From the IMG/VR virus record IMGVR_UViG_2698536649_000010: a DNA stretch of 9,075 bases; one strand, written 5' to 3'. The position numbers and the translations under genes were made by a program. This stretch comes from a virus. Taxonomy: Duplodnaviria; Heunggongvirae; Uroviricota; Caudoviricetes. A model generated the notes under the pieces. That model was not told the DNA's origin. It made no database searches and worked only from the letters and a program-made list of their open reading frames with translations. Of this stretch, positions 84 through 7,458 are shown piece by piece; the stretch's first letter is position 1; the number at the start of each line of letters is the position of its first letter.

Positions 84-139
84 AAAAAGGGCGGACATCA
101 GTTCATGGGCAAACAGATGCCGCCAAACGTCACCAGAAA
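84..139 (-). ncRNA. dicF: DicF-like small RNA (cell-division inhibitor sRNA of Qin-type prophages)
   Basis: Minus-strand read (revcomp of + 84..139) is UUUCUGGUGACGUUUGGCGG...CCGCCCUUUUU. The 5' 20 nt and the 3' CCGCCCUUUUUAAAGUGAAUUUUGUGAUG context match E. coli K-12 DicF as I recall it; GC hairpin plus U5 run forms an intrinsic terminator. Same strand and downstream position relative to dicA as in K-12. The central ~25 nt differ from K-12. Confidence 0.65.
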
Positions 140-472
140 ATTGATAACAGAGGGCGTTGCAGCGGGGTTGTCACTTAAGCGTATGGTCAACCTGACAACC
201 CGGTGTCCTCAACGGGGAAGGAATAACCCCGCCATACTTACCGCTGCGCCATTTCGCGGAGTGCCACAACCGGAAGCGCACGGTCGACGAAAATTTAACG
301 ACAGGCTATCTATGAACCAGCAACCTCGCCGTGCGCTTTCGCGTTATGCTCTGACTTTTCAGAGAAATATCCTTTCAGTAAACTGTCAGTGCCGGATGTT
401 CACCCGTGTCCGGCGCACGCACTCCACTTCACCCGTGGAGAACTCCTTAATTACCAACCCTCAGGAGGGTGA

Positions 473-706
473 ATGTTAAAATCAACTCTTATTGCTAAAT
501 GCCTTTATCAAAATCGCATGGTAAGCAGCATTTCAATAGGCGAGTCTGCAGTTAAAAGTATTTTCGAAGAGTACTTTCCCGGGCATGATTTTAATAAATG
601 GAATACCAAATTACCGCCAGCAGTTTCAACGCGTATTCTGAAAGCAACCGAAAGAGCAAGTACAATTCGCGTTAACTATTTCATTAAAGATTTGTGGGAT
701 CTTTGA
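473..706 (+). CDS. hypothetical 77-aa protein, convergent to the dicB-type operon
   Basis: ATG at 473 preceded by a near-perfect SD (AGGAGG at 462..467); AT-rich coding sequence; protein-like composition. 3' end overlaps the 3' end of the minus-strand 135-aa gene by 23 nt. No homolog recognised. Confidence 0.3.
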   Translation: MLKSTLIAKCLYQNRMVSSISIGESAVKSIFEEYFPGHDFNKWNTKLPPAVSTRILKATERASTIRVNYFIKDLWDL

Positions 707-1091
707 TATCCACAGAGCCTAAAGTATGTGCATATGGATGTGCTATTATGCGCCCTCGCAGATTTGCATCATTTTCTAAATTCACTGAACGAAACAGGGC
801 ATCAACAAGGCTCTGTACAATGCAAAGGCAATCGAAGACTGTCGCCGTTTCTGTTTTGATTGATGAAAGAACATGGCCATTCACGCAAACAGAAATTACC
901 CGTTTATTAACATCGCTTTCCTGCTTTTGATTATCAGAACCATATAGCCCAGAAAAAGCATTGCGCACATTACGAACCATATTATCGATGGTTTCTTTTT
1001 CTGCGGTACTAAGGTCAAGAGTAGCCAGTTGTGAACGAACTATATTCGATGCCATTTCCTGTAATGGCGTTGGTAAATCTTTAAATTCCAT
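684..1091 (-). CDS. hypothetical 135-aa protein (operon cargo, unknown function)
   Basis: ATG at 1091 with GAGG SD about 7 nt upstream on the minus strand; lies 22 nt downstream of the preceding operon gene. No homolog recognised. Confidence 0.6.
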   Translation of the reverse strand: MEFKDLPTPLQEMASNIVRSQLATLDLSTAEKETIDNMVRNVRNAFSGLYGSDNQKQESDVNKRVISVCVNGHVLSSIKTETATVFDCLCIVQSLVDALFRSVNLENDANLRGRIIAHPYAHTLGSVDIKDPTNL

Positions 1092-1113
1092 TATTAGCCT
1101 CGTTGGTTAGCTA

Positions 1114-1332
1114 TTAACGTGGGTATGTAATCATTCTGGCAATGCTTAATGCCGCTGCTTTTTCCAGATTGGTGATATCCTGCTCCAGAGCGGACAGATT
1201 TTCAGCCTGCTTAGCCCTGGCTTCATTGGCCCATTTCAGGTCCTGCACCGCCTTAATTTTCTGGTGCATCCACTCATAAAGTTCATCATCGGTATAGTCT
1301 GGCGCGATGATGACGGGGTCTCGTTTCTGCAT
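1114..1332 (-). CDS. small prophage protein, 72 aa (YdfC-like by size and operon position)
   Basis: ATG at 1332 with strong SD (AAGGAG) 6 nt upstream on the minus strand. The 72-aa length and the position between dicA and dicF match ydfC of the K-12 dicB operon; sequence identity not verified from memory. Confidence 0.6.
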   Translation of the reverse strand: MQKRDPVIIAPDYTDDELYEWMHQKIKAVQDLKWANEARAKQAENLSALEQDITNLEKAAALSIARMITYPR

Positions 1333-1404
1333 GTCGGCTCCTTGTGGTTAGCGTTGCCTGCTTTTTAACCACGTCAGGCGAGGTGGTATCCTCTGAGGGG
1401 TCTG

Positions 1405-1761
1405 TTACTCGAGAGGAAATTGGTTATGAATACAATCAAGTTTTCTTGCCCAGAATGTGGTGGCTAAGTCTTTGACACATCCTTTAAGCCGCAGGGCTCT
1501 GACAGTTTCGCGGGAGCCATCTGCAAAAATTGTGGTCACCTTGTAACTGAAGATGAGTCCTCGCAGTTCGATGACGAAATCGTTGACAATATCTTCGGTG
1601 CACTCACCAGAGACTTTCTGAAGTAAAGGCGCATACCGCTTAGTTACCGCTCTGATAACTCTTACCTGTCCGGCAATGGCGCTGATATCAATATAAAGCG
1701 CCATCGCTGTTTCTTTGCTGATCCCTGGACGCCTTCCATTCTGATGTTTGACTTCGCCCAC
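1405..1761 (-). CDS. hypothetical 118-aa protein, first gene of the leftward dicB-type operon
   Basis: GTG start at 1761 with GAGGA SD upstream on the minus strand; first ORF downstream of the putative operon promoter. Does not correspond to the short ydfA/ydfB of K-12; an internal ATG (MALYIDIS...) is an alternative start. Confidence 0.5.
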   Translation of the reverse strand: MGEVKHQNGRRPGISKETAMALYIDISAIAGQVRVIRAVTKRYAPLLQKVSGECTEDIVNDFVIELRGLIFSYKVTTIFADGSRETVRALRLKGCVKDLATTFWARKLDCIHNQFPLE

Positions 1762-1840
1762 TGAGAAATCCTCTGCTTCCCCTTAACGCCGGGTAGCGGA
1801 ACTGTTTGCTGAGAACACCGTGCGGTGTCTTGATGAGTAG

Positions 1841-1870
1841 AATTTAGAATAGCCTAAGAGTTATGGTCAA
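1841..1870 (-). promoter_or_regulatory. candidate dicB-operon promoter with embedded DicA-type operator
   Basis: On the minus strand: -35 TTGACC (+1865..1870), 18-bp spacer, -10 TAAATT (+1841..1846). The 14-bp palindrome TTAGAATAGCCTAA (+1844..1857) overlaps the -10 and has the same TTAG-N6-CTAA form as the three sites in the dicA/dicC intergenic region. Confidence 0.4.
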
Positions 1871-1967
1871 GCTTTTGTGTAGAAAAACCTAAGCTTCTTG
1901 ATGTAAAAAACACAAGTATTTGAAAGTTTGTGCTTTTTATTACAGAGAGTTGCGAAAAAAAGGGGGG

Positions 1968-2375
1968 TTATTTATTTGCGCTTCTTTTGCGAGCTTTGAG
2001 TAGTTCTTCAAAAAGTTTGTTGAAATTCTCAACTCGAGCACGCATCTCTGACAACAGAGCCTTTTGCTCTGACTCAGGCAGTGCGTCGAACAGTTGAAGC
2101 AACTCTTTTTGATCTTCTGTCAGATTGACTGGCTGATTATCTGGGATCGGTTCGCCTGGTTGCTTATCTTCATCTCCAAAAAGAAGCCAAGTCGGCGAGC
2201 ACTGAAGCGCCTGGCTCAGTGCGAATAATCTCTTCCCCGCTGGCTGTGTTTCATCTCTTTCCCATTGAGAAATTGTTACGTGAGCCACTTTGACCAGCTT
2301 ACCTAATGCGGCCTGAGACAGTTTTAATTTTTTTCGCCTGTATAAGAGGCGAGCACCGAAGGTTTCGTTTTTCAT
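1968..2375 (-). CDS. dicA: DicA-type repressor (XRE-family HTH, cI/C2-like prophage repressor)
   Basis: 135-aa product closely matches recalled E. coli DicA along its length (LFALSQALQCSPTWLLFGDEDKQP, ARVENFNKLFEELLKAR). Divergently arranged with a Cro-like gene. Confidence 0.9.
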   Translation of the reverse strand: MKNETFGARLLYRRKKLKLSQAALGKLVKVAHVTISQWERDETQPAGKRLFALSQALQCSPTWLLFGDEDKQPGEPIPDNQPVNLTEDQKELLQLFDALPESEQKALLSEMRARVENFNKLFEELLKARKRSANK

Positions 2376-2451
2376 ATTAGGTAATTCTAATTTTTCTTGA
2401 CTTAGGTTTCTCTACGATCTAGTTTCCTTAGGAAAATCTAAGGGGTTCGAT
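2376..2451. promoter_or_regulatory. dicA/dicC divergent promoter region with three TTAG-N6-CTAA operator-like palindromes
   Basis: Sites at 2377..2390 (TTAGGTAATTCTAA), 2402..2415 (TTAGGTTTCTCTAC) and 2428..2441 (TTAGGAAAATCTAA), centres 25 to 26 bp apart. Rightward -35 TTGACT at 2397..2402 and SD AAGGGG before the dicC ATG. Leftward -10 TAGAAT (minus strand, +2384..2389) sits 8 nt from the dicA ATG with no SD, suggesting a leaderless PRM-like transcript. Confidence 0.5.
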
Positions 2452-2679
2452 ATGTTGAAAATTGATGCTATAGCGTTTTTTGGCAGCAAAACAAAGCTTG
2501 CCAATGTCGCAGGAGTTAGGCTGGCAAGCGTTGCTGCATGGGGGGAACTGGTTCCTGAAGGTCGCGCGATGCGCCTGCAAGAGGCATCCGGCGGGGAACT
2601 TCAGTACGACCCCAAAGTTTATGACGAATATCGTAAGGCAAAGCGGGCGGGGCGGTTGAACAATGAAAATCACCACTGA
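2452..2679 (+). CDS. dicC: DicC-type Cro-like regulator
   Basis: 75-aa product matches recalled DicC (GSKTKLA, LVPEGRAMRLQEASGGELQYDPKVY, RAGRLNNENHH); divergent from dicA. Confidence 0.85.
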   Translation: MLKIDAIAFFGSKTKLANVAGVRLASVAAWGELVPEGRAMRLQEASGGELQYDPKVYDEYRKAKRAGRLNNENHH

Positions 2680-3214
2680 ACAGGTTTGTGAGGCTCTGGA
2701 TACCTGGGTATGCCGACCAGGAATGACACAGGAGCAGGCGACGATATTAATCACGGAAGCATTCTGGGCTCTGAAAGAACGCCCGAACATCGATGTTCAA
2801 CGCGTCACGTTTAATGATGGCGAGGTTGATCAACGGGCGCTGGGCGTTAACCGGGTGAAGATATTCGAACGCTGGAAAGCTATCGACACCAGAGATAAGC
2901 GTGACAAATTCACGGCGCTGATTCCGGCAATTATGGAGGCTATCCGGATCAGCGATTTCAGATTGTATTGTGAAATTACTGACGGAAAAAGCATTACGTA
3001 CATGATCGCCGGGTTAAACAAAGAATATGGCGATGTGGTGGAGTCCGGGCTGCTTTTTGCGGATCCAGTTGTTGTGGAACGTGAGACTGACGAGCTTATA
3101 GAAAAAGCTATTGCTTTCAAGCACGCGTATCGTCAGCAATACCAATATTACTTTGCAGATAAACAAATGTCTGCCAGGGGGTCGTATGAGTATCGATGCA
3201 CTACGATGGGCTAA
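2663..3214 (+). CDS. YdaT-like (CII-position) prophage regulatory protein
   Basis: ATG at 2663 overlaps the dicC stop; 183-aa product resembles recalled Rac YdaT in the central region (ERWKAIDTRDKRDKFTALIPAIMEAI versus WLKGETKTQREKIQKLIPAILAIL). Sits directly after the Cro-like gene. Confidence 0.55.
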   Translation: MKITTEQVCEALDTWVCRPGMTQEQATILITEAFWALKERPNIDVQRVTFNDGEVDQRALGVNRVKIFERWKAIDTRDKRDKFTALIPAIMEAIRISDFRLYCEITDGKSITYMIAGLNKEYGDVVESGLLFADPVVVERETDELIEKAIAFKHAYRQQYQYYFADKQMSARGSYEYRCTTMG

Positions 3215-3767
3215 AAAGGTGAAAACCGGCAGTTCATCCAGTAAGTCAGTATTGACCTGGCTTGCTGATATGTGCGGTGCCGATTTGTGTGCATACCCGT
3301 CTGTATCTGCACTGGCAGAAGTAACGGAACTGAACAAAAAGACTGTGCAGGACAGCTTACGACACCTGATGGAGATTGGGTTAATTGTTGATACCGGTGA
3401 GAGAAAAGGCAGAACAAAGCAAATTGTGGTGTACCGACTTATCGGTGTAGAAGAAAGTGTTGCCGAGCCTGAATACACCCAAAAACGGGAGTCTTTAAAG
3501 GTGGGTACAATTGGTGCTGTTAATAAAAACAGTACCGAAAATGGTTATGTTTCAGCACAAAACAGACCCAAAAACAGAACTCTTAGCTGCATGGAAAATA
3601 ACCAAAGACACCCAAATTTTCCATCAAAGACACCCAAAAACGGATCACGGAACCCAAAGGAACCCAAAGATCTAAACCCCACACATAACGCACGCGAGAG
3701 TGCTCCGACCAGTGAGCAGGAAGTTTTGTCGTTACAGGCAGCCCCCCTGTATTCCTGTATGGCCTGA
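3186..3767 (+). CDS. replication initiator, N-terminal winged-helix part (lambda O-like role); probably truncated by a frameshift
   Basis: ATG at 3186 with GGGGG SD. N-terminal HTH-like region, then a low-complexity linker encoded across iteron-like repeats. Frame ends at TGA 3765..3767 shortly after a C6 homopolymer (3742..3747); the following frame carries the DnaT-like continuation. Confidence 0.6.
   Translation: MSIDALRWAKKVKTGSSSSKSVLTWLADMCGADLCAYPSVSALAEVTELNKKTVQDSLRHLMEIGLIVDTGERKGRTKQIVVYRLIGVEESVAEPEYTQKRESLKVGTIGAVNKNSTENGYVSAQNRPKNRTLSCMENNQRHPNFPSKTPKNGSRNPKEPKDLNPTHNARESAPTSEQEVLSLQAAPLYSCMA
3475..3670 (+). repeat. iteron-like direct repeats (candidate replication origin) inside the initiator gene
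   Basis: Six copies of an ACCCAAA-core motif with core at 3477, 3566, 3609, 3631, 3652, 3662. Spacings of 43, 22, 21 and 10 bp approximate multiples of a helical turn. Position inside the linker-coding part of the initiator gene parallels ori-lambda inside O. Confidence 0.45.
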
Positions 3768-3790
3768 GCGAACCCATCGGAAAATTCCCG

Positions 3791-4225
3791 ATGAGCGATA
3801 GCTGGTATCCGTCACGGGATTTTCGACGACGGGCTGCGTTGTGGGGGATGGCTTTGCCGGAGACAGAATTTACACCTGCTGAACTTGCCGCCTTCCGGGA
3901 CTACTGGGCAGCGGAGGGGAAAGTGTTTACGCAGATTCAGTGGGAGCAGAAATTCGCCCGTCACGTAAATCACGTCAGGGCGCAGGTTAAACCAGTCAGC
4001 AAAGGGGTAAACCATGCAGCAGCACCAGGTGGCACCGCATCACGGGCAGTTCAGGAAATTCGGGCAGCACGTGAGCAGTGGGAACGTGAAAACGGATTTA
4101 TCAGCGACGGAAACGGCCTGGAAGCTGTGGGAACTCATGGGGGTGGTTTATTCGAACCGCTGGATCCAGAAGAACGGGGCCGCACCTTCGAAGCTCTGGA
4201 TTGCACAGATTGGCGCGATGACTGA
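3791..4225 (+). CDS. DnaT C-terminal-domain-like (primosomal protein I-like) ORF; probably the frameshifted C-terminal half of the initiator
   Basis: Product YPSRDFRRRAALWGMALPETEFTPAELAAFRDYWAAEGKVFTQIQWEQKFAR aligns with recalled E. coli DnaT ([55 protein letters not shown]). The similarity continues upstream of ATG 3791 in the same frame (EPIGKFPM versus VPMGKFAM), where no start codon exists. 3' end in this frame (4225) overlaps the P-like gene by 212 nt, so the true stop is uncertain. Confidence 0.5.
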   Translation: MSDSWYPSRDFRRRAALWGMALPETEFTPAELAAFRDYWAAEGKVFTQIQWEQKFARHVNHVRAQVKPVSKGVNHAAAPGGTASRAVQEIRAAREQWERENGFISDGNGLEAVGTHGGGLFEPLDPEERGRTFEALDCTDWRDD

Positions 4226-4679
4226 GCAGCAAATCCGGCAGGTCTGCCGCCAGTGCATGGACCGCTGCCGGGCGGGTGAAACATGGCCTCCGGACCTGGC
4301 TGAGTTTGTGGCACTGATTTCGAAAAGCGGAGCCAATCCATTCGGTCTGACGGTGGATGCTGTGATGGAGGAGTACCGCCGCTGGCGCAATGAGTCCTGG
4401 CGATACGACGGAAGTGATAAGTACCCGTGGTCTCAGCCTGTGCTGTATCACATTTGCCTCGAGATGCGTTCAAAGGGGATTGAGCGCCAGATGACCGAAG
4501 GGGAATTAAAACGGCTTGCAGAACGGCAACTGACGAAATGGGCAAAGCATGTTAGTAACGGCCTGAGCGTTCCGCCAGTCCGGCGACAACTGGCGGCCCC
4601 CAAACGCCCGTCGGGGCCAACGCCAATTGAGTTGCTGAAACAGGAATATGAACGCCGGAAAGCGGCCGGTTTTGTCTGA
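4014..4679 (+). CDS. lambda P-like replication protein (DnaB helicase loader)
   Basis: ATG at 4014 with AAGGGG SD 7 nt upstream; 221 aa. C-terminal half aligns with recalled lambda P (YDGSDKYPWSQPVLYHICLEMRSKGIERQMTEGELKRLAERQL versus YPDAESYPWKSNAHYWLVTNLYQNMRANALTDAELRRKAADEL). Confidence 0.75.
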   Translation: MQQHQVAPHHGQFRKFGQHVSSGNVKTDLSATETAWKLWELMGVVYSNRWIQKNGAAPSKLWIAQIGAMTEQQIRQVCRQCMDRCRAGETWPPDLAEFVALISKSGANPFGLTVDAVMEEYRRWRNESWRYDGSDKYPWSQPVLYHICLEMRSKGIERQMTEGELKRLAERQLTKWAKHVSNGLSVPPVRRQLAAPKRPSGPTPIELLKQEYERRKAAGFV

Positions 4680-4713
4680 GTTGAGAAGTAATTTTTACCG
4701 GGAGGAAAATTTA

Positions 4714-5448
4714 ATGGAAACCGTTTTTGACGCACTGAAAGCGATGGGAAAAGCCACGTCGGTATAGCTGGCTGCGCGACTTGATATCAGTCGTGAAGAA
4801 GTACTGAACGAGCTGTGGGAACTGAAAAAGGCTGGCTTCGTTGATAAAAGCGTATACACCTGGCGTGTGGCTGATAACAACGTTCAGCAGGAACAGCCAG
4901 CGCCAGAAGAAACCACCACGGCAACAGAAGCGAAAATCTCAGAGTGCGATTTAACCGCGACGATTGAACAACGCGGACCACAAACGGCGGATGAACTGGC
5001 TACGCTGTTCGGTACAACATCCCGCAAAGTTGCTTCAACGCTGGCAATGGCAATCAGCAAAGGTCGTCTGATTCGCGTAAACCAGAACGGTAAAATTCGT
5101 TACTGCATACCAGGTGATAATTTACCAGCAGAGCCGAAAGTTGAATCGGTAGCGGAAACCGATGGTAAAGCCTTTCCTCAGCCAGCCGGTGTTGCGTTAC
5201 CGGTACAGAAAGATGCAACACAGGAAGATATTAAAACAGAAACTGTGGCGGACATTGTGCAGTCGCTGCCATCGTTTACTGCAACGCGAGAAGATGATTT
5301 GATTTTGCCATCGCTGCATATGGCAAATCGCGAACTGCGTAGGGCGAAGAATCATGTCCAGAAGTGGGAGCGAGTCTGCGCCGCGCTGCGGGAGCTGAAC
5401 AAGCACCGGGATATGGTTGCCGGGATTTGTCGGAAGTCCGGGCAATGA
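4714..5448 (+). pseudogene. double winged-helix protein gene interrupted by an in-frame amber codon
   Basis: ATG at 4714 with GGAGG SD 8 nt upstream. Codon 18 is TAG (4765..4767) and the same frame continues open to 5448. The N-terminal repeat ([40 protein letters not shown]) and a second repeat ([38 protein letters not shown]) both look like winged-helix units. First possible restart downstream is GTG 4867. Confidence 0.55.
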
Positions 5449-5483
5449 GCGGATGGTGCAGGCCTGAAATCATGATACTAACA

Positions 5484-6056
5484 ATGAAGGTAAAATGCAT
5501 CGGCAGTCTGATTGGTCGTAGTGAGGCGGCGGTCAGGATGAAAGCCCAGGTTAAGGGAATAAGCCTGATTCTGCGGGGTGATTTTCACCAGTCAACAAAA
5601 TATCCGTAGCGCGATAACGGTCAAAAATTATGGCGCTGACACTTTTGTGCCACTGGAGATGACTGTACCTAAGTTCAGGGGAGAAGAACACGTCCGGTGG
5701 GATGGTCGGGCCAGATTTAAAGGGCAGGTCATGGCTCCAGCCTGTACGCTGGCAATGGAGGCTGCCTGGCGGGAAATTGATATGGGAACCACGCCACTCA
5801 GGGATTTACTGCCGGTCCAGAGAATAAATTCCTGTTACGGTTACACCACTGTGATCTTGCAAGTGCAGGAAAGTAGGTCTACACGGTAACGCGAGTGCGT
5901 GTAACTTTTGATGTCATTCCCGTAGAAACACCGGACAAATTTTCGCTGACAGGTCATGCAGAAGGTATAAATCTGCAGATTATGGACAATTACGGATATC
6001 CGGCAAGAGCCGGAAAAAGCATGCCGCCTCTAATTCTCAGTGGAAGATGGACTTGA
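5484..6056 (+). pseudogene. decayed fimbrial major-subunit-like gene remnant (chaperone-usher type)
   Basis: Three successive frames carry fimbrial-like segments: a signal-like MKVKCIGSLIG (from 5484), then GRARFKGQVMAPACTL...INSC (5578..5889; compare FimA GGTVHFKGEVVNAACAV...LNDC), then GINLQIMDNYG (5895..6056; compare FimA GVQILDRTG). At least two frame changes are needed, and the usual C-terminal strand is missing where the AT-rich block begins. Confidence 0.35.
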
Positions 6057-6307
6057 TTATACTCATTGCATTGTCAGAAATAGTTATCCATTAAAGGCTG
6101 GCTATTCCAAACAGGATGTTGATTACAAAAATGTAATCAACATGTAAGGTTTATACTCTTCAATATGCGTATAATTTTCCTTATTTTGTTGACTTTAAAT
6201 AACAAGCTATGCACGAGGTAAAGTCGGATAAGTTTATCTGGATGTAATATATATTATTTGTAGTGTTTATAACTTTATTTCATGATAACCAATAAAAGGA
6301 GTTTTTT
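6057..6307 (+). promoter_or_regulatory. AT-rich upstream region of the binding-protein moron (promoter not resolved)
   Basis: Strongly AT-rich compared with flanking phage genes. Contains a 10-bp inverted repeat GTTGATTACA-AAAA-TGTAATCAAC (6118..6141), a TATAAT hexamer at 6170..6175, TTGACT at 6189..6194, and a strong SD AAGGAG at 6296..6301 before ATG 6308. Confidence 0.35.
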
Positions 6308-7066
6308 ATGAGGAACATAATGGCAGGTTTTTTAATATTCCTGTCTTCTGCTGCTTATGCTGATATCAATCTGTATGGTCCTGGTGGCCCGCATACAGCC
6401 TTGCTTGATGCAGCCAAACTTTATGCCGAAAAAACAGGTATTATAGTGAACGTTCATTACGGCCCACAGAACAAATGGAATGAAGATGCCAAAAAAAATG
6501 CAGATATCTTGTTTGGCGCATCAGAACAATCTGCTCTGGCTATCATTCGGGACCATAAAGACAGCTTCAGTGAAAAAGATATTCAGCCTCTTTATCTGCG
6601 AAAAAGTATTTTACTGGTAAAGAAAGGTAATCCTAAAAATATCCGGAGTATTGACGACCTGACCAGACCTGGGATTGGCGTAATTGTTAATGATGGTGGT
6701 GGTACCAGTAATACATCAGGCACTGGCGTCTGGGAAGATATTGCCGGACGTAAAGGGAATATAGAAACTGTCGCCGCAATCCGAAAAAATATTATTTTAT
6801 ATGCGCCCAATAGCGGAACTGCACGTAAGGCTCTTGAGAATCAGCCTGGAGCAGATGTCTGGATAACCTGGGCTGACTGGGCAGCCAGTAATCCAGAAAT
6901 TGGTGATGTCGTGGAAATAGCGCCAGACTACGTGATATGGCGTGATATGAACATTACAGTACGTCAGGATGCAAATGATGAAACCCGTCGATTTGCAGAA
7001 TGGCTACAAACCGATGAAGCGGCGCCTGCATTCAAAAAATATGGCTGGACCAGGAAAGGCACTTGA
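6308..7066 (+). CDS. secreted periplasmic substrate-binding protein, ModA-like fold; orphan (no transporter genes adjacent)
   Basis: 252-aa product with N-terminal signal peptide (MRNIMAGFLIFLSSAAYA then DINLYG). Resembles recalled E. coli ModA at several points (ADILFGASEQSA versus ADLFISADQKW; C-terminal RFAEWLQTDEAAPAFKKYGW versus AFYDYLKGPQAAEIFKRYGF). AT-rich codon usage. Confidence 0.8.
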   Translation: MRNIMAGFLIFLSSAAYADINLYGPGGPHTALLDAAKLYAEKTGIIVNVHYGPQNKWNEDAKKNADILFGASEQSALAIIRDHKDSFSEKDIQPLYLRKSILLVKKGNPKNIRSIDDLTRPGIGVIVNDGGGTSNTSGTGVWEDIAGRKGNIETVAAIRKNIILYAPNSGTARKALENQPGADVWITWADWAASNPEIGDVVEIAPDYVIWRDMNITVRQDANDETRRFAEWLQTDEAAPAFKKYGWTRKGT

Positions 7067-7067
7067 C

Positions 7068-7098
7068 ATCCTCGTCCTTCAGGACGTGGATTCTTTTT
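7068..7098 (+). terminator. intrinsic terminator of the binding-protein gene
   Basis: Begins 2 nt after the TGA stop: stem ATCCTCGTCC / GGACGTGGAT (9 of 10 pairs), loop TTCA, followed by TCTTTTTCC. Confidence 0.6.
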
Positions 7099-7220
7099 CC
7101 GGATGCCGCGCCAGCGGCATGTAGGGGCAGCTCACAAAACGGAAAAAATTGTACGCTAAGCCTCGCCAGGTGAACTGAATTCATTCCGATATGGGAATTC
7201 CCATATCGGGCGAAAACGGT

Positions 7221-7249
7221 TTGCTGTAACGGCAGAGTTAAGTAGGATT
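7221..7249 (+). promoter_or_regulatory. candidate promoter of the hok-type mRNA
   Basis: -35 TTGCTG (7221..7226), 17-bp spacer, -10 TAGGAT (7244..7249); predicted start near 7256, giving a 5' end GGUGCUUGAGGCUAUCUGCCUC that resembles the 5' end of plasmid R1 hok mRNA as I recall it. Confidence 0.3.
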
Positions 7250-7302
7250 GCTGCGGGTGCTTGAGGCTATCTGCCTCGGGCATGAACACCAACGGCAGAT
7301 AG

Positions 7303-7353
7303 ATAAAAGCCCCACCCGACTATAAATCGAAGTGAGGCCCCTATATGCTCGTC
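7303..7353 (-). ncRNA. candidate Sok-like antisense RNA
   Basis: Minus-strand hairpin (7309..7339, stem with two G-U pairs) followed by a U-run (7308..7303). Possible promoter on the minus strand: -35 TTGACC (+7383..7388), 17-bp spacer, weak -10 CAATCT (+7360..7365). It is antisense to the hok leader around the mok start, where Sok acts in known hok/sok loci. Confidence 0.3.
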
Positions 7354-7401
7354 ACATATAGATTGCCTCTTACGGACCGAAAGGTCAAGGAGAAGCAGGC
7401 T

Positions 7402-7458
7402 ATGAAGCAGCAAAAGGCGATGTTAAAAGGCGGGGGAGAAATCCCTCGCCACCTCTGA
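7402..7458 (+). pseudogene. hok: truncated hok toxin ORF (18 codons; HokD-like N-terminus, transmembrane segment absent)
   Basis: Encodes MKQQKAMLKGGGEIPRHL then stop. The first 8 residues match recalled HokD/RelF (MKQQKAMLIALIVICLTV...); the hydrophobic helix and C-terminal domain are missing in all three frames before the terminator, implying an internal deletion of roughly 100 to 130 bp. Confidence 0.55.

Follow-up and report, generated by a model that had tools for sequence, protein, structure and literature searches.

Graded lesions in the early region of an ompW-integrated lambdoid prophage of Escherichia coli point to stepwise decay

The window analysed here is a 9,075-nucleotide stretch of viral DNA (IMG/VR record IMGVR_UViG_2698536649_000010, Caudoviricetes) and, judged from its sequence, it represents the early part of a cryptic lambdoid prophage integrated at ompW in enterohaemorrhagic Escherichia coli, of the OI-57/CP-933O type ("PPompW"). 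Four lesions mark this region: a homopolymer frameshift in the replication initiator gene, an amber codon in a downstream winged-helix gene, a multiply frameshifted pilin remnant and an internal deletion in hok. An earlier note, made from the sequence alone, had listed these lesions as signs of a prophage under relaxed selection that still keeps its immunity switch, dicF and a binding-protein moron intact. All four are present in the window and relaxed selection is well supported. They do not form one contemporaneous set, as had been supposed, and have nested ages instead: the pilin lesions occur in all copies examined, the amber codon is O157:H7-wide, the initiator frameshift is an allele of a rare sublineage and the hok deletion, which may be an artefact, is unique to this sequence. 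The best explanation, to which we assign a probability of about 0.8, is ordinary stepwise mutational decay of a cryptic prophage and not one coordinated event. The order of events is taken from how widely each lesion is shared.

When the whole window was compared by megablast with 5,426 complete E. coli genomes, O157:H7 chromosomes matched it across its full length at 99.8-99.9% identity. The corresponding DNA of strains F3113 and WS4202, the latter derived from EDL933, forms the early part of a lambdoid prophage adjoining ompW. Its genes run in the order int, xis, exonuclease, dicB, ydfC, DicA-type repressor, cro, ydaT and an initiator annotated as "DnaT-like ssDNA-binding" (single-stranded DNA), then replication protein P, DUF1627, a 54-amino-acid open reading frame (ORF), a fimbrial pseudogene, paa, hokD, DUF968 and rusA, with lysis and structural genes following. 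The element inserted at ompW is OI-57, or prophage CP-933O, which carries adfO (= paa, z2053) and ckf, a hok-family killer gene (z2054) (PMC8565820, PMC9144400). Both members of this OI-57 marker pair lie in the window, paa whole and ckf internally deleted, and ompW, which is outside the window, is adjacent in the near-identical relatives. Eleven "PPompW" prophage records in a phage collection share the same 4.4 kb at 99.6-99.7% identity.

The most widely shared lesions are those of a PapH/PixH-type minor pilin pseudogene (5641..6147, plus strand), which has frameshifts near 5805 and 6043, a TAG at about 5874, no signal peptide and a divergent C-terminus. Aligned by tblastn, an intact 195-residue PapH-like pilin matches the window over residues 24-182 in three pieces (frame +1, 5641-5808; frame +3, 5799-6044, which contains the TAG; frame +1, 6043-6102), separated by two frame changes. 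Residues 1-23, the signal peptide, are gone and the last 13 residues are replaced. The three fragments have no Pfam or NCBIfam match and the stitched version has no Pfam match, PF00419 included. In a large protein search the stitched translation matched intact 195-residue fimbrial proteins (E = 1.1e-72, 78% identity, 88% coverage), some of them named PapH, PixH or "PAP fimbrial minor pilin". These intact homologues lie between major-pilin (papA-like) and usher (papC-like) genes in operons of papB-A-H-C-D-J type; neither the ORF list nor Pfam contains an usher or chaperone gene in the window. The Prokaryotic Genome Annotation Pipeline (PGAP) records "fimbrial protein; frameshifted; internal stop" in the O157, O145, O26 and O55:H7 copies, and the pilin is an old scar because the same pseudogene occurs in all copies examined. 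It had been taken for an early-region phage gene. By its sequence relationships it is an old, isolated fragment of a fimbrial operon of pap/pix type, adjoining paa, not a recently lost phage function, and it would have been dead before the prophage spread among the examined serotypes.

The second lesion affects a DUF1627/YdaW-family gene (4714..5448, plus strand; Pfam PF07789, 308.9 bits) that encodes two winged-helix-turn-helix-like (wHTH-like) modules and a C-terminal domain. The N-terminal wHTH-like sequence falls below Pfam thresholds (HTH_20, 25.9 bits against 27; TrmB and MarR also below). An amber TAG at 4765-4767 replaces codon 18 of the 244 codons and is the sole protein difference from the intact O145 copy. 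The codon is GAG in O145, O26 and O55:H7, and O55:H7 strain DEC5B has an intact 244-residue DUF1627 protein. A 61-base probe with TAG has exact matches in 292 complete genomes; a sample of 40 rows spread over the results contained 13 exact matches, every one from an O157-type strain. The corresponding GAG probe matches exactly in 311 genomes, and no row among the 20 sampled carries the label O157:H7. This distribution, together with the intact DEC5B protein, indicates that the nonsense mutation arose on the O157:H7 branch and was fixed there; the event would have been a G-to-T change after the split of the O157:H7 line from O55:H7.

The third lesion is a frameshift in an O-like replication initiator. 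The aligned intact alleles have a run of seven C residues (C7), whereas the window has six (C6, 3741..3746, plus strand), one C fewer than F3113, PV15-279 and O145. The ORF list thus gives a 193-residue N-terminal fragment (3186..3767, plus strand) that aligns with residues 1-187 of the intact 346-residue protein and ends at a premature TGA (3765-3767). The DnaT-like C-terminal domain (3747..4225, plus strand) continues out of frame, in the -1 register, to 4225; its longest ATG-started ORF (3791-4225) matches Pfam PF17948 DnaT with 58.6 bits (cut-off 25). The N-terminal domain has weak matches to HTH_36 (22 bits, cut-off 25) and RP-C (17.6 bits). One C added to the run restores a 346-residue ORF; its product has one amino acid difference from the intact protein found in O55:H7 and in typical O157:H7, and two from that of O145. 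Homologues with 52-57% identity in Klebsiella, Enterobacter and Salmonella carry PF13730 and are single proteins of 339-352 residues with the same two domains. Because these distant homologues are in one piece, the split initiator is a lesion and not an alternative architecture.

Iteron-like direct repeats with a CACCCAAA core lie within the initiator gene (3472..3668) in two repeat families, D1 and D2, with three copies each; the core itself occurs in at least five copies, a short way upstream of the C tract. Lambda has its ori within gene O, and by this analogy the repeats are likely to be the prophage origin. The initiator stop codon (TGA, 4223-4225) overlaps the start of the next gene in ATGACTGA (4218-4225). 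That gene encodes a lambda-P-type helicase loader (4218..4679, plus strand; Pfam PF06992, 59.6 bits; "replication protein P", WP_000139485.1, in relatives) and its ORF is uninterrupted. Iterons inside the gene and a stop codon that overlaps the start of a lambda-P-type loader fit a lambda-O-like role. A C7-to-C6 replication slip in one sublineage would have split the initiator between a putative origin-binding N-terminal domain, with its iterons, and a DnaT-like C-terminal domain that presumably works with P, whose gene adjoins. From the sequence we infer that origin firing, and with it autonomous replication, was lost.

The C6 allele is rare. A census with a 61-base probe centred on the run covered 823 complete genomes: five have the exact C6 sequence, none of them labelled O157 and one labelled O111:H8, and 795 differ from it by one or two changes, with one extra base in all matches listed, as in the aligned C7 copies. 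The exact 193-residue product occurs on 14 contigs, among them drafts from NCBI, Logan contigs and a single metagenome contig from ENA. Five NCBI/ENA contigs carry the allele itself, as do Logan contigs, and one of the latter recurs in at least 20 read sets. Contigs of GCA_002460865.1, GCA_000234215.2 and GCA_025331255.1 and four of five Logan contigs are 100% identical to the window across their overlap, the first two over more than 7 kb. Exact agreement of several draft assemblies and over 20 read sets with the window makes C6 a real allele and no random error.

A short tract that begins in the loader gene may further mark this sublineage. Twelve differences from other ompW prophages are concentrated in 4667..4722, a patch that covers the end of P, the intergenic stretch and the first DUF1627 codons. 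The patch matches a paralogous lambdoid prophage of O157:H7 genomes with one mismatch in 81 bases, and its exact sequence occurs at the ompW-prophage locus in no complete RefSeq genome. Judged by this pattern of matches, the 56-bp patch looks like a short gene conversion between resident prophages.

The fourth lesion is in hok (ckf/hokD). The hok mRNA leader and sok region (7255..7404, plus strand) is undamaged and matches Rfam RF01794 over model positions 1-157 of 157 with 103.9 bits (gathering score 59). The coding remnant (7402..7458, plus strand) retains codons 1-8 up to a deletion junction at 7426/7427, and the transmembrane toxin body is gone. Compared with every relative examined, in which the intact protein has 51 residues, 136 nucleotides are absent: codons 9-51, the stop codon and eight further nucleotides, with one adjacent substitution. 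As the last step of decay, and in this sequence alone, hok would have lost its toxic body through this deletion.

The main competitor to stepwise decay, which we regard as a genuine but lesser possibility, is that some lesions are sequencing or assembly artefacts, chiefly the hok deletion as a mis-join of two short-read contigs within a multi-copy repeat and possibly the C6 frameshift. The hok junction is absent from the 5,426 complete E. coli genomes, where no place covers at least 80% of the probe, and from IMG/VR, GTDB representative genomes and JGI metagenomes; the exact remnant protein is likewise absent from the gene index. The GCA_002460865.1 contig is 100% identical to the window on either side of the gap and has hok intact. 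Assemblies tend to break here, as the GCA_000234215.2 contig stops 31 nucleotides past the deletion start and the GCA_025331255.1 contig just upstream, and O157 genomes carry several near-identical hok copies, in up to nine places per genome. The deletion is private to this strain or a mis-join, with a chance of about one in three that it is an artefact; the 136-nucleotide gap that the earlier note described is thus real as a feature of the window and uncertain as a biological event. C-run length is also error-prone in long-read assemblies. Against an artefact stand the C6 allele, identical in Logan contigs and in five draft or metagenome contigs of independent origin, the amber codon in its 292 complete genomes and the pilin lesions common to every copy examined. 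The earlier note had allowed that the frameshift and amber codon might prove to be sequencing artefacts; this fails for both, which recur in many independent assemblies. Recurrence of the C6, amber and pilin lesions means that artefact explains the hok deletion at most.

Several other points weigh against stepwise decay as set out above. An O157:H7 origin of the window is inferred from its amber allele. PGAP models the amber gene as a 226-residue coding sequence (WP_077744273.1) that starts at the codon after the TAG (records L001, 24768-25448, and L019, 5169-5849) and not as a pseudogene, and a 193-residue product from GTG 4867 would retain the second wHTH-like module and the DUF1627 domain. 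The 193-residue N-terminal initiator fragment and the separate DnaT-domain ORF from ATG 3791 could in principle act as a two-piece initiator. Strain 97-3250, the one of the five complete C6 genomes that was looked at closely, also lacks a G at 5194, and this extra single-base deletion suggests that some C6 calls may be long-read homopolymer errors. Finally, the hok event is messy and may not be biological: a loss of 136 nucleotides is combined with a substitution, and both lie in a multi-copy repeat at which short-read contigs end.

Decay under relaxed selection receives further support from outside the window. The earlier note had proposed a check of the rest of the prophage, and in the WS4202 copy (L023, 4438-17522) the annotation shows int, xis and the genes for lysis, terminase and capsid as intact, while the portal gene is frameshifted, in two pieces, with an internal stop, tail protein L is truncated and J is frameshifted. 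Defective portal and tail genes in close O157:H7 relatives indicate that genes for propagation are no longer under maintaining selection. The initiator has also been struck independently in other strains. An IS1203 insertion interrupts it in PV15-279 (L014, 4189-5401) and F3113 has a G deleted at window position 3942 (L001, 23943), which may be an assembly error; strains 28RC1 and F3398 have an IS1203 insertion inside the matched region. Genomes of this kind also contain a paralogous prophage whose P (97% identical) and DUF1627 genes are intact, whose hokD protein is identical and whose DnaT module is 88% identical. These intact counterparts make the functions of P, DUF1627 and hokD redundant. 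The possibility that this paralogue complements the initiator in trans was rejected: its N-terminal domain is unrelated, so origin recognition could not be supplied.

The retained genes do not tell which functions the host still needs. The repressor, cro and paa ORFs are uninterrupted, as are ydaT and P, which bears out that part of the earlier note; dicF is a weaker case. The note's claim that selective retention points to host-useful functions does not follow, because divergence between copies from separate serotypes is only about 0.14%. With the conversion patch set aside, the window has approximately 12 differences from the O145 copy in 8.6 kb. The calculated expectation for repressor, cro and paa together (1,395 nucleotides) is about 1.9 changes, and the observed zero has P ~0.14. 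Similarly, three recent disruptive hits in 9 kb have a probability of about 0.6 of missing a target of 16%. At such low divergence, the short repressor, cro and paa genes may simply not yet have been struck.

An alternative to neutral decay is adaptive domestication, in which loss of replication (initiator) and of the killer (hok) was favoured and an element carrying paa and effectors was locked in, harmless to the cell. The initiator has been broken in at least three ways in related strains (C6 slip, IS1203 insertion, deleted G), C6 also occurs in complete genomes not labelled O157, including the O111:H8 genome, and cargo and immunity genes are untouched. We consider domestication unlikely. 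Most sampled O157:H7 genomes keep initiator and hok intact, both being whole in typical O157:H7 strains WS4202, Z1826 and 6535WT, and 795 of the 823 genomes in the census lack C6. O157 genomes commonly carry IS1203 (IS629) insertions throughout, selection cannot be tested at so low a divergence and some of the indels may be assembly errors. Replication would also pose little danger, as the repressor lacks a peptidase domain and Sakai prophages with such repressors are not SOS-inducible (PMC2669165). A related and still less probable idea is that the C7 tract is a hot spot struck repeatedly and independently, in an O157-type sublineage and in the genomes not labelled O157, so that together with the IS1203 insertions it would reflect parallel selected immobilisation of the paa prophage or a reversible replication switch. 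That the tract is a slippage switch for phase variation of prophage replication, or that split initiator and truncated DUF1627 protein still function, is very improbable: the tract does sit at the boundary between the specific N-terminal domain, with its iterons, and the shared DnaT-like module, ATG 3791 opens exactly at the DnaT domain start and C6 occurs in more than one background, but a contingency locus would be expected to have a run longer than 7 nucleotides, C6 is rare, only run lengths of 6 and 7 are seen, the distant homologues are all single proteins and the sequence before 3791 has no good ribosome-binding site.

Stepwise decay, our preferred explanation, involves nothing beyond known prophage biology, and damage of this kind is already known. 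Its biological weight is limited, and the window is a clear, dated example of a virulence-gene-carrying prophage that decays step by step. Because adfO and ckf are cited OI-57 marker genes (PMC8565820, PMC9144400), a strain with the ckf deletion, if real, would type as ckf-negative. The 226-residue PGAP model conceals a nonsense mutation that is specific to one lineage and distinguishes O157:H7 from O55:H7. Possible markers of a sublineage that has no representation among complete RefSeq genomes are the C6 allele and the 4667-4722 patch.

Other features of the window are mostly regulatory genes and cargo. A DicF-like small RNA copy (89..138, minus strand) aligns with Rfam RF00039 over the full length of the model (positions 1-52 of 52; E = 3.2e-8); its 43.5 bits lie below the gathering score of 48, so that it gives no Rfam match at that threshold. 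It is diverged in the terminator stem, where block 95-119 differs from the O145 and O26 copies, and its 5' seed region is conserved. The DicA-type repressor (1968..2375, minus strand) has 135 residues, without a peptidase domain, and matches NCBIfam NF007257 DicA over its full length (241.6 bits); its DNA has no difference from relatives annotated WP_000787428.1. The Cro-type regulator (2452..2679, plus strand), from the ORF list, is a Cro/CI family protein (WP_000912298.1) in relatives and matches PF14549 on identical contigs. A YdaT-family protein follows (2663..3214, plus strand; Pfam PF06254, 24.8 bits, cut-off 21). A 54-residue ORF (5445..5609, plus strand) overlaps the DUF1627 stop codon; it has no Pfam match and is hypothetical protein WP_001505071.1 in relatives. 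The paa/adfO gene (6308..7066, plus strand) encodes an AcfC-family adhesin with a periplasmic-binding-protein fold (Pfam SBP_bac_11, 118.3 bits), and its DNA has no difference from copies annotated WP_001449026.1. It is flanked by an AT-rich upstream region and a terminator-like hairpin (7073-7086). Between paa and the hok leader lies a near-perfect palindrome (7176-7210) centred on GAATTC (CCGATATGGGAATTCCCATATCGG). A zinc-ribbon ORF (1426-1626, plus strand; CPECGG ... CKNCGH) has an in-frame TAA at codon 14 and runs antisense to an annotated minus-strand hypothetical gene. It was rejected as a fifth lesion: all 14 phage matches score 98.5% and PGAP annotates the opposite strand. A score of 98.5% in all 14 fits a mismatch at the stop position alone, which suggests that the stop is common to all, and the ORF is probably no gene or an old relic.

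The decay described here has parallels in known systems. The defective prophage pool of O157 Sakai has scattered frameshifts, insertion sequence (IS) insertions and deletions, with recombination between resident prophages (PMC2669165), and the window agrees with it as a lambdoid prophage with such damage, a peptidase-less repressor and a sign of recombination between prophages. It differs in its broken initiator, since every lambdoid Sakai prophage other than Sp3 was scored as having apparently functional O and P genes (Asadulghani et al. 2009, PMC2669165). The text of that paper does not mention ompW; among its prophages, a lambda-type loader and peptidase-less repressor would fit Sp9 better than Sp10. 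Rac-type phages share the DnaT-like C-terminal domain of the initiator and the DUF1627 gene, annotated ydaW there, at 85-91% DNA identity to the window. The ydaU-ydaV-ydaW region of Rac in K-12 differs in having a DnaC-like YdaV loader, where the window has one of lambda-P type, and in the N-terminal origin-binding domain. K-12 ydaW itself is listed as a pseudogene. Pedersen and Gerdes reportedly found in 1999 that chromosomal hok/sok loci of K-12 are inactivated by IS elements, point mutations and rearrangements. In those loci, as in the window, the toxin ORF is destroyed and the leader/sok region survives; the window differs in that its lesion is an internal 136-nucleotide deletion, found in one sequence only, which may be an artefact. 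The closest counterparts are OI-57/CP-933O of EDL933 and "PPompW" of O145:H28. Three features are specific to the window compared with OI-57, namely the C6 initiator frameshift, the 56-bp gene-conversion patch (4667-4722) and the hok/ckf deletion, and the EDL933-derived WS4202 copy has none of the three. In all else these elements correspond closely: DNA of both counterparts is 99.6-99.9% identical to the window, and OI-57/CP-933O has the same order of genes, dicB-dicF-ydfC-repressor-cro-ydaT-O-P-DUF1627-pilin pseudogene-paa-hok-DUF968-rusA.

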